From Escherichia phage Turkey5, in the sequence record PQ471516.1: DNA of 64,000 nt; one strand, written 5' to 3'. The notes under the pieces are model-generated. The model was not told where the DNA came from. It was given only the letters and a program-made list of their open reading frames with translations, and did not search any database. This document shows, one piece after another, positions 20,796 to 21,656 of this stretch. Position numbers and translations under genes: made by a program. Within the stretch, counting starts at the first letter, position 1. Each line of letters begins with the position of its first letter.

Positions 20796-21656
20796 ATGAA
20801 ACCAATCAGAGTACTGTCACTTTTTAATGGAATGAGTGTGGGATACATGGCACTACAAGATGCTGGTATCCCAGTTGAAACGTATTACTCTTCCGAAATT
20901 GATAAGTATGCTATTGCCGAATCCCAAGAGAATTTCCCTGATATTATCCAACTAGGTGACGTTACCAAGTGGAAGGATTGGGATATTGAATGGGATAAGA
21001 TTGACCTCCTTATGGGAGGGTTTCCATGTCAAGCATGGAGCGTAGCAGGTAAACAAGGCGGTTTAAATGACATTCGTGGACAACTGTTCCTTGTTATGGT
21101 TGATATTTTCGAACACATTAAAAGTCTAAATCCAGACTTGAAAGTACTGTTCGAGAATGTTAAAATGAAAGACGATTTCAAGCAATACATCAACAGTATT
21201 CTTGATATGACACCAGTACTGATAAATTCCCATAATTACACGCCTCACTTCAGGCAACGTTATTATTGGTACAGTTCTGATAAATTACTAACTCCACCTG
21301 CATTAATGAATGCACCTGTGCTTCAGGACATTCTGGATGATGGTTGGTATACTGACCGTACCGCTTCGTACTGTATAGATGCCAACTACTTCAAGGGTGG
21401 TGATTGTAATCAATACTTCAATAAGTCCAGGCGTCAATTGGTGTTCAAGAACCCTGATATCAATCGTCAGTACTTACTTGAGAATGGTAAAAGAAACATT
21501 GACTACCGTCACTTAAGTGTAGTAGAATGTTGTAAATTGCAAGGCGTACCAACTGATTATTTCAAGTTATCTAGTAATACACAGGCATATAAAATGCTAG
21601 GAAACGGTTGGACAATGCCAGTCATTTCACATTTGCTTAAAGAGATATTCTTTTAA
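20796..21656 (+). CDS. DNA (cytosine-5)-methyltransferase
   Basis: Motif I LSLFNGMSVG, motif IV GFPCQAWS (PCQ), motif VI ENV, C-terminal GNGWTMPV. Confidence 0.75.
   Translation: MKPIRVLSLFNGMSVGYMALQDAGIPVETYYSSEIDKYAIAESQENFPDIIQLGDVTKWKDWDIEWDKIDLLMGGFPCQAWSVAGKQGGLNDIRGQLFLVMVDIFEHIKSLNPDLKVLFENVKMKDDFKQYINSILDMTPVLINSHNYTPHFRQRYYWYSSDKLLTPPALMNAPVLQDILDDGWYTDRTASYCIDANYFKGGDCNQYFNKSRRQLVFKNPDINRQYLLENGKRNIDYRHLSVVECCKLQGVPTDYFKLSSNTQAYKMLGNGWTMPVISHLLKEIFF

Follow-up and report, generated by a model that had tools for sequence, protein, structure and literature searches.

A compact, DNMT3-like orphan C5 DNA methyltransferase of a Rak2-like jumbo phage and its probable role against restriction

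Positions 20796-21656 (+ strand) of the Escherichia phage Turkey5 record PQ471516.1 hold an open reading frame (ORF) of 286 codons, running from ATG to TAA, that encodes a C5 DNA methyltransferase (hereafter the methylase). The analysed stretch of this record, called the window, comprises 64,000 nucleotides (nt), and counts, family scans, and footprints refer to it unless said otherwise. That the ORF specifies a genuine C5 DNA methyltransferase is evident from the gene, its motifs, and its fold, and the enzyme is very probably an active orphan methylase used against restriction. By Pfam, the 286-amino-acid (aa) product is a single-domain protein matching PF00145 (E = 6.6e-37; 128 bits, with the cut-off at 22), and it also matched PHROG 116, annotated as "DNA methyltransferase" (E = 4e-59). 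The C5-methyltransferase motifs I, IV, VI, VIII, IX, and X can all be read from the translation in canonical order. These motif and profile matches are far beyond chance and confirm the preliminary description of this DNA, which had reported a C5 DNA methyltransferase with PCQ and ENV catalytic motifs.

All catalytic residues are invariant in an alignment of the methylase with its homologues (67 sequences), which also served as input for structure prediction. Motif I, the S-adenosylmethionine (AdoMet)-binding loop F10-N-G-M-S14 (20823-20837), is of the DNMT3-like FxGxS/A variant, with F10 and G12 invariant. Motif IV, P77-C78-Q79 (21024-21032), contains the catalytic nucleophile Cys78 (21027-21029) and is followed by the invariant motif VI, E120-N121-V122 (21153-21161), and by motif VIII, R153-Q-R155 (21252-21260), in which both arginines are invariant. 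Comparison with homologues delimits a variable, target-recognition region at residues 159-236 (21270-21503), which precedes motif IX (RHLSVVECCKLQGVP, R238...QGVP252, 21507-21551) and motif X (G269-N-G271, 21600-21608). The stretch between motifs VIII and IX thus measures about 82 residues, and the preliminary description of the enzyme as compact, with a short target-recognition domain, is correct in a relative sense, as the homologues of phages phi92 and ICP1 have about 50 more residues there.

The AlphaFold model of the methylase is of high confidence (mean predicted local distance difference test (pLDDT) score 94, predicted template modelling score (pTM) 0.91) and shows a class I methyltransferase fold in which the second lobe, for target recognition, is small; its template modelling (TM) score to DNMT3A-DNA complexes is 0.80. 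In a Foldseek search of the PDB, the best 50 matches were all catalytic domains of DNMT3A, 3B, or 3C (TM about 0.80, 26-28% identity). A sequence search of the PDB gave a similar picture, with DNMT3A/B as the sole full-length structure matches (residues 2-281, E about 3e-22). The match to M.HhaI is confined to residues 4-149 (E = 8e-18), that to M.HaeIII likewise lies mainly in the N-terminal catalytic half, and DNMT2/tRNA methyltransferases match the N-terminal half (E about 1e-10). Because DNMT3 is both the best match in the fold search and the only full-length match in the sequence search, the methylase is a compact, DNMT3-like single-domain enzyme.

The genomic background of the gene differs from the one initially assumed. 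The preliminary description had placed it in a T4-like, T-even background, in which a C5-methylase would conflict with the protection of DNA by hydroxymethylcytosine, but neither part of this view survived. The 4 kb around the methylase are 97% identical to Escherichia phage vB_EcoM_JNE01 (hereafter JNE01) and about 80% identical to 121Q, PBECO4, phAPEC6, Sharanji, and some thirty other Asteriusvirus phages of about 350 kb. By these sequence matches, the window belongs to an Asteriusvirus-type (Rak2-like) jumbo phage outside the Tevenvirinae and only distantly related to T4. The paper describing the Rak2-like phage CBB counts 21 of the 38 T4 core proteins in it and states that no gene for glycosylated hydroxymethylcytosine could be identified, and for the clade, too, the literature reports no hydroxymethylcytosine or glucosylation genes. 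In the window, a T4 core gene is represented by a gp44-type clamp loader (4451-5446), and no dCMP hydroxymethylase, glycosyltransferase, TET/JBP, Vsr, or restriction nuclease family was detected by Pfam among the 129 predicted proteins. A pathway leading from 5-methylcytosine (5mC) to hypermodified bases by TET/JBP enzymes and glycosyltransferases was considered and rejected, as none of its components was found within the window. In native DNA of the related phages Hallingskeid and Kaldavass, a 2025 nanopore study found modification confined to specific motifs, and the extreme avoidance of restriction sites described below implies that cytosines are largely unmodified and ordinary. As the genome is Rak2-like and not T-even, the apparent paradox between C5-methylation and hydroxymethylcytosine vanishes.

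The gene is a conserved component of this phage lineage. The methylase shares 89-90% aa identity (tblastn) with the "DNA-cytosine methyltransferase" of 121Q (gp91, 90%), PBECO4, and phAPEC6, 74-76% with the orthologues of GAP32, CBB, Xanthomonas phage XbC2, and the Erwinia phages Hallingskeid (CDS_0275, 76%) and Kaldavass (CDS_0246, 75%), and 63% with ORF194 of RaK2. It is therefore kept in Asteriusvirus, Mimasvirus (GAP32), CBB, RaK2, XbC2, and Erwinia jumbo phages, and the 121Q, PBECO4, and phAPEC6 genes, GAP32_390, the CBB cytosine methylase, RaK2 ORF194, CDS_0275, and CDS_0246 represent the same gene at a syntenic position, with a product of 286 aa. The 121Q-group orthologues do differ in sequence from the window's allele, which has no exact match in the phage collection. 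Compared with the 121Q-type alleles, about 80% nt identity but 90% aa identity is retained, which indicates purifying selection. In CMSTMSU and SD-6_S16 the gene appears to be split or shortened (three and two tblastn pieces, respectively), possibly representing pseudogenes or sequencing errors. The wider family is huge, with at least 8000 homologue candidates at E <= 1e-10 in a protein database search, and in some metagenomic homologues, with 45-48% identity, the cytosine methylase is joined to a cytidine/dCMP deaminase domain (PF00383), which is an unexpected combination. The papers on phAPEC6, CBB, Sharanji, and UE-S1 mention the gene as a presumed protective methylase. Taken together, these comparisons depict it not as an unusual acquisition but as a lineage-conserved, already annotated orphan C5-methylase of Rak2-like jumbo phages.

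Upstream of the gene, an extended -10 promoter-like element of the sigma70 type, TGcTATAAT (20752-20760, + strand), can be read from the sequence 36 nt before the start codon. It is conserved within Asteriusvirus (in JNE01 and 121Q) and not in other genera, and the promoter scan did not list it because it lacks a good -35 element; it is a candidate promoter. A Shine-Dalgarno-like AAGGA (20785-20789) lies 6 nt before the ATG, and the extended form AAAGGA is kept in all seven aligned relatives across which the upstream elements were compared. The CBB paper assigns the corresponding region (CBB_390-546) to the presumed early genes with RpoD-like promoters. Downstream, a 159-aa ORF (21658-22137, + strand) has its ATG 2 nt past the methylase stop codon, leaving a gap of 1 nt, and because of this spacing the two genes probably form one transcription unit, which an intrinsic-terminator-like hairpin with a T-run (22147-22179) would close. 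The 159-aa protein matched only PHROG 28599 (unknown function), with no Pfam, PADLOC, or PDB sequence match. The syntenic gp92 of 121Q is 50% identical to it, and GAP32_391 shows weak similarity. The 159-aa protein has hardly any further homologues, and its AlphaFold model is unusable (pLDDT 48).

A restriction partner might be hidden in this neighbourhood, and we looked for one by Pfam, PHROG, PADLOC, and PDB sequence searches of the neighbouring ORFs. The five ORFs on each side of the methylase matched only PHROGs of unknown function, with no Pfam or PADLOC match, and no nuclease, defence, or Vsr family was found among these ten ORFs or among the 129 ORFs of the window. The product of the 159-aa ORF, which has no assignable fold, could conceivably be a small nuclease, but nothing suggests that it is. 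On these results a hidden partner is considered unlikely, and the preliminary view of the enzyme as an orphan methylase holds, with no detectable restriction partner in the flanking ORFs or the window.

While the allele in the window is uninterrupted, two sister alleles are not. The gene of JNE01, the nearest genome, and that of phage A4 each form one unbroken ORF of 629-632 codons, in which an insert of 343-346 aa falls exactly between P77 and the catalytic C78 (coordinates in the compared stretches: JNE01 3030-4058, A4 approximately 1732-2769). The insert begins with CFP(E/A)GT, ends with VVHN followed by CQAWS, and matches the Pfam families Hint_2 and LAGLIDADG_3 above threshold. These features identify it as an intein that includes a homing endonuclease, and the catalytic cysteine of the methylase would itself serve as the +1 nucleophile of the intein. 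The junction 21026|21027 of the window corresponds to the empty homing site. Outside gene nt 228-333 the exteins of the window and JNE01 are 98-100% identical, whereas the stretch at 21023-21128 diverges. As 29 of the 36 extein mismatches cluster in these roughly 100 nt at and after the intein site, the stretch looks like a co-conversion tract beside the homing site. Homologues of the intein are rare (14 clusters in a database of 5.8 billion proteins), and nearly all of them, including one from Paenibacillus cisolokensis, sit within otherwise divergent C5-methylases. The full-length intein-bearing examples that we read always have the insertion at the same point before the catalytic cysteine. 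Our literature searches found no description of inteins in C5-methylases.

The preliminary description had considered the target of the methylase unknown, a statement now overtaken by published data on relatives that point to CCWGG. Comparing native with amplified DNA, the 2025 nanopore study of Hallingskeid and Kaldavass detected N6-methyladenine (6mA) at GATC and 5mC at CC[AT]GG, confirmed both marks with Dam- and Dcm-specific models, and found an additional unidentified modification at TGCAT in Kaldavass. The numbers of enzymes and motifs agree, with two predicted methylases and two modified motifs in Hallingskeid and three of each in Kaldavass. As both phages encode orthologues of the window's methylase and CCWGG is the sole 5mC motif reported in them, the inner cytosine of CCWGG is the most likely target by analogy, an assignment that in our estimate is about as likely to hold as to fail. 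Beyond this study, our literature searches turned up no direct determination of specificity for an Asteriusvirus methylase.

Genome composition is in line with this assignment. CCWGG occurs 51 times in the window (41-53 expected) and reaches or exceeds the expected number in each of the six Rak2-like genomes in which its sparing was assessed, including 121Q, GAP32, RaK2, Hallingskeid, and Kaldavass. The same six genomes show strong depletion of GGWCC and CCSGG and of almost every GC-rich palindrome (in the window, GGWCC 5 vs. 30-41 expected and CCSGG 1 vs. 3-22 expected). An unprotected coliphage can purge CCWGG, as is evident from T7 with 2 sites observed vs. 59-71 expected.

Several observations nevertheless weigh against CCWGG as the target. 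T5 and rV5 keep CCWGG too, and T5 is likewise depleted in GGWCC and normal in CCWGG; the composition argument is therefore consistent with the assignment, not diagnostic of it. Neither T5 nor rV5 is known to encode a C5-methylase. In a comparison of the window with JNE01 (58.5 kb aligned, 98.2% identity), in which C<->T differences were tallied by motif context, the inner C of CCWGG was not a hotspot of C-to-T change (2 C<->T differences vs. 2.8 expected), a deamination footprint of low power that still excludes a strong effect, and CCWGG sites were lost at the neutral rate (4/48). The variable region of the methylase has no detectable similarity to Dcm/EcoRII-type enzymes, Dcm-like chains matching residues 69-123 only. 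Finally, the authors of the nanopore study caution that host Dam and Dcm could have made the marks.

An alternative is that the methylase is an active orphan enzyme with a target other than CCWGG and that the CCWGG marks of the relatives stem from host Dcm. In that case the real motif might be short and missed by nanopore sequencing, or it might differ between the enzymes of Erwinia and Escherichia phages. The latter would fit the variable region, which is 87% identical to that of 121Q but only 65-68% identical to those of the profiled Erwinia phage enzymes, and besides the absence of similarity to Dcm and the host methylation left open by the nanopore study, further C-containing motifs (GCNGC, TGCA, ACGT, CACGTG, and GTGCAC) are not avoided and could be the target instead. 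On the other hand, CCWGG was the only 5mC motif in two phages that carry orthologues, and the choice of alternatives is narrowed by the rejection of CpG or GpC specificity, which the resemblance to DNMT3 had suggested: with either specificity, GCGC, CCGG, CGCG, and GGCC should be protected sites, but all four are strongly avoided. On balance, a target other than CCWGG appears rather unlikely, but it deserves serious consideration.

The avoidance of restriction sites is itself extreme. GCGC is absent from the window (28-63 expected) and from 367 kb pooled from eight Rak2-like genomes (226-390 expected), while it is present in phi92, ICP1, T7, T5, and rV5. Of the 24 palindromic hexamers with four G/C positions, 19 are missing from the window; CACGTG, GTGCAC, and ACGCGT occur at normal levels. 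The absolute ban on GCGC could reflect exceptionally heavy pressure from restriction or a nuclease specific for GCGC that the phages themselves encode, and our literature searches found no earlier description of it. The T5 record annotates nick sites with a PuGCGC consensus. Among the differences between the window and JNE01, C<->T changes cluster at the third position of CGCG (8 vs. 0.9 expected, p = 4e-6) and at the second C of CCGG (4 vs. 0.8 expected), an excess that may reflect ongoing purging or turnover of avoided sites rather than methylation. Avoidance profiles contrast sharply between phages carrying related methylases: ICP1 has no CCWGG and no CCNGG in 49.5 kb (33-57 expected, 33-36 for CCWGG alone), and phi92 has neither AGTACT nor GGWCC sites.

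A genome purged of particular motifs raises the question of whether the methylase acts only on host or competitor DNA during takeover, its motif, e.g. GCGC, having been removed from the phage itself. A target of this kind would escape detection in methylomes of virion DNA, and the missing GCGC and the missing hexamers would be in line with it. However, selection by host restriction enzymes fully explains the avoidance of these sites, there is no positive evidence for a host-directed role, and the CCWGG methylation of the relatives already accounts for a single C5-methylase gene, so that we give this idea very little credence. Hardly better is its bolder variant, in which a methylase specific for a purged motif, with GCGC as the candidate, would turn the host's methylation-dependent nucleases on the host chromosome or tell self from non-self; we consider it very unlikely. 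In a milder reading, a minimal DNMT3-like recognition lobe may have converged on the 5-bp specificity of Dcm.

A different motif is as conspicuous by its abundance as GCGC is by its absence. AGTACT occurs 154 times in the window (e.g. at 20818, 21144, 21215, 21470, and 21760), seven times the 22 sites expected from composition, and the palindrome CAGTACTG 36 times vs. 0.7 expected (about 50-fold). Every sampled Rak2-like genome that carries the methylase gene is enriched 7- to 13-fold in AGTACT and 30- to 100-fold in CAGTACTG, an enrichment of AGTACT not seen in phi92, ICP1, T7, T5, or rV5. The preliminary description had called AGTACT-containing motifs common in regulatory regions. Common they are, but they are not specific to such regions: the sites fall in all three codon phases (52/27/49), their density is similar in coding and intergenic DNA (2.3 vs. 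2.9 per kb, p = 0.38), and the promoter consensus sequences published for the clade all lack AGTACT. A role as a regulatory motif was rejected on the codon-phase and intergenic statistics. The sites are also conserved: between the window and JNE01, only 3 of 143 AGTACT sites are changed, compared with 9.5% of the sites of the remaining palindromic hexamers that have two G/C positions (p = 4e-4), and only 1 of 32 CAGTACTG sites vs. about 4 expected. AGTACT and CAGTACTG therefore constitute a motif selected at the DNA level, and CAGTACTG is reminiscent of the highly iterated palindromes of cyanobacteria.

This frame-independent, conserved motif could in principle be what the methylase marks, as an AGTACT or GTAC target within the (C)AGTACT(G) palindrome with an epigenetic or self-recognition function. 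Its enrichment in every gene-carrying Rak2-like genome fits this idea, as does its absence or depletion in phi92 and ICP1, whose homologues differ in the variable region. Yet Hallingskeid and Kaldavass, with 136-159 AGTACT and 365-500 GTAC sites per 41 kb, were reported to be modified only at GATC, CCWGG, and TGCAT, and the cytosine of AGTACT shows fewer C<->T differences than the background between the window and JNE01 (3 vs. 8.3 expected). AGTACT was rejected as the methylase target on these two grounds, a link between motif and enzyme now being highly improbable, and nothing else connects them.

That the protein is an inactive relic, or an RNA methylase resembling DNMT2, is just as improbable: the DNMT2/tRNA methyltransferase matches and the disrupted-looking CMSTMSU and SD-6_S16 alleles would be compatible with it, but all ten motifs are intact and invariant, purifying selection is strong across genera, the similarity to the DNA-methylating DNMT3 spans the full length while that to DNMT2 covers the N-terminal half only, and sister alleles keep a homing-endonuclease intein in the active site, as is usual for genes whose function has to be preserved.

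The best overall explanation thus appears to be the clade's orphan C5-methylase with CCWGG as its target, expressed early from a sigma70 promoter and acting against EcoRII-type restriction, a combination on whose full correctness we are evenly divided. The gene with its motifs and fold, its conservation, its orphan setting, and the genomic background are observed, whereas enzymatic activity, early expression, the CCWGG specificity, and the role against restriction are deduced. The methylase would probably be transcribed early by the host sigma70 RNA polymerase, together with the small downstream ORF, and would act on replicating phage DNA. If the enzyme works like other members of its family, the target cytosine would be flipped out of the helix, Cys78 of the PCQ motif would attack C6 while Glu120 of the ENV motif protonates N3, and the methyl group of AdoMet would be transferred to C5. 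Methylation of CCWGG, the specificity of Dcm, would then confer resistance to EcoRII-type enzymes whatever the Dcm status of the host, and most other GC-rich palindromes would be dealt with by removing the sites from the genome. Of the roles proposed in the preliminary description, anti-restriction is the most plausible.

The methylase itself is of little novelty, being conserved, annotated, and discussed in the literature on Rak2-like jumbo phages. If the CCWGG assignment is true, a DNMT3-like enzyme of very small size would have the specificity of Dcm, and such an enzyme would be useful as a small tool and would show how little protein suffices to read 5 bp. In these phages, one or two methylases go together with the near-total purging of GC-rich palindromes, which makes them a clear natural case of a mixed strategy against restriction. 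The family of active-site inteins, the absolute ban on GCGC, and the selected CAGTACTG palindrome are likelier than the methylase to yield something new.

Elsewhere in the window, 126 of the 129 called ORFs lie on the + strand, and 10 Pfam families were detected in total. Among the encoded proteins are a phage sigma-70-like factor with regions 2 and 3 (47905-48867), a TelA/tellurite-resistance-like protein (9523-10656), and an Rv2179c-like 3'-5' exonuclease (10739-11425), and seven tRNA genes (Leu, Gly, two Ser, Asn, and two Thr) are clustered at 30480-35754.

Among enzymes of known structure, the catalytic domains of mammalian DNMT3A, 3B, and 3C resemble the methylase most closely, sharing its size (about 285 aa), the FxGxA/S form of motif I, and a small variable region. 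In contrast, the regulatory PWWP and ADD domains of DNMT3 and a DNMT3L-type partner have no counterpart in the phage enzyme, and the loops of the DNMT3 target-recognition domain align unconvincingly with it. The CpG specificity of DNMT3 is also unlikely for the methylase, as CpG-containing restriction sites are avoided and not protected in the phage.

The likeness to Dcm and M.EcoRII is of another kind and concerns the proposed target, the inner C of CCWGG, and the proposed block of EcoRII-type restriction, both suggested by the methylomes of relatives. The Dcm-like PDB chains 3lx6 and 3me5 match the methylase only around motifs IV-VI (residues 69-123, E = 0.004-0.007), and the Vsr partner of Dcm has no equivalent, with no Vsr family among the 129 ORFs of the window. 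Dcm-type enzymes are also much larger, at about 470 aa. If the specificity of the methylase equals that of Dcm, it would thus have been reached with an unrelated and much smaller recognition region.

Longer relatives within this phage family are gp043 of phi92 and the "putative DNA-methyltransferase" of ICP1, which are 45-50% identical over their full length, with ICP1 at 45%. They share the DR.KSYCIDANY.KGG...KSRRQ block of the variable region with the methylase, and their additional residues lie in this region, between motifs VIII and IX. Neither genome shows the GCGC-free, AGTACT-rich signature, and CCWGG is missing from ICP1, so that the specificity of the phi92 and ICP1 enzymes may differ from that of the methylase in the window.

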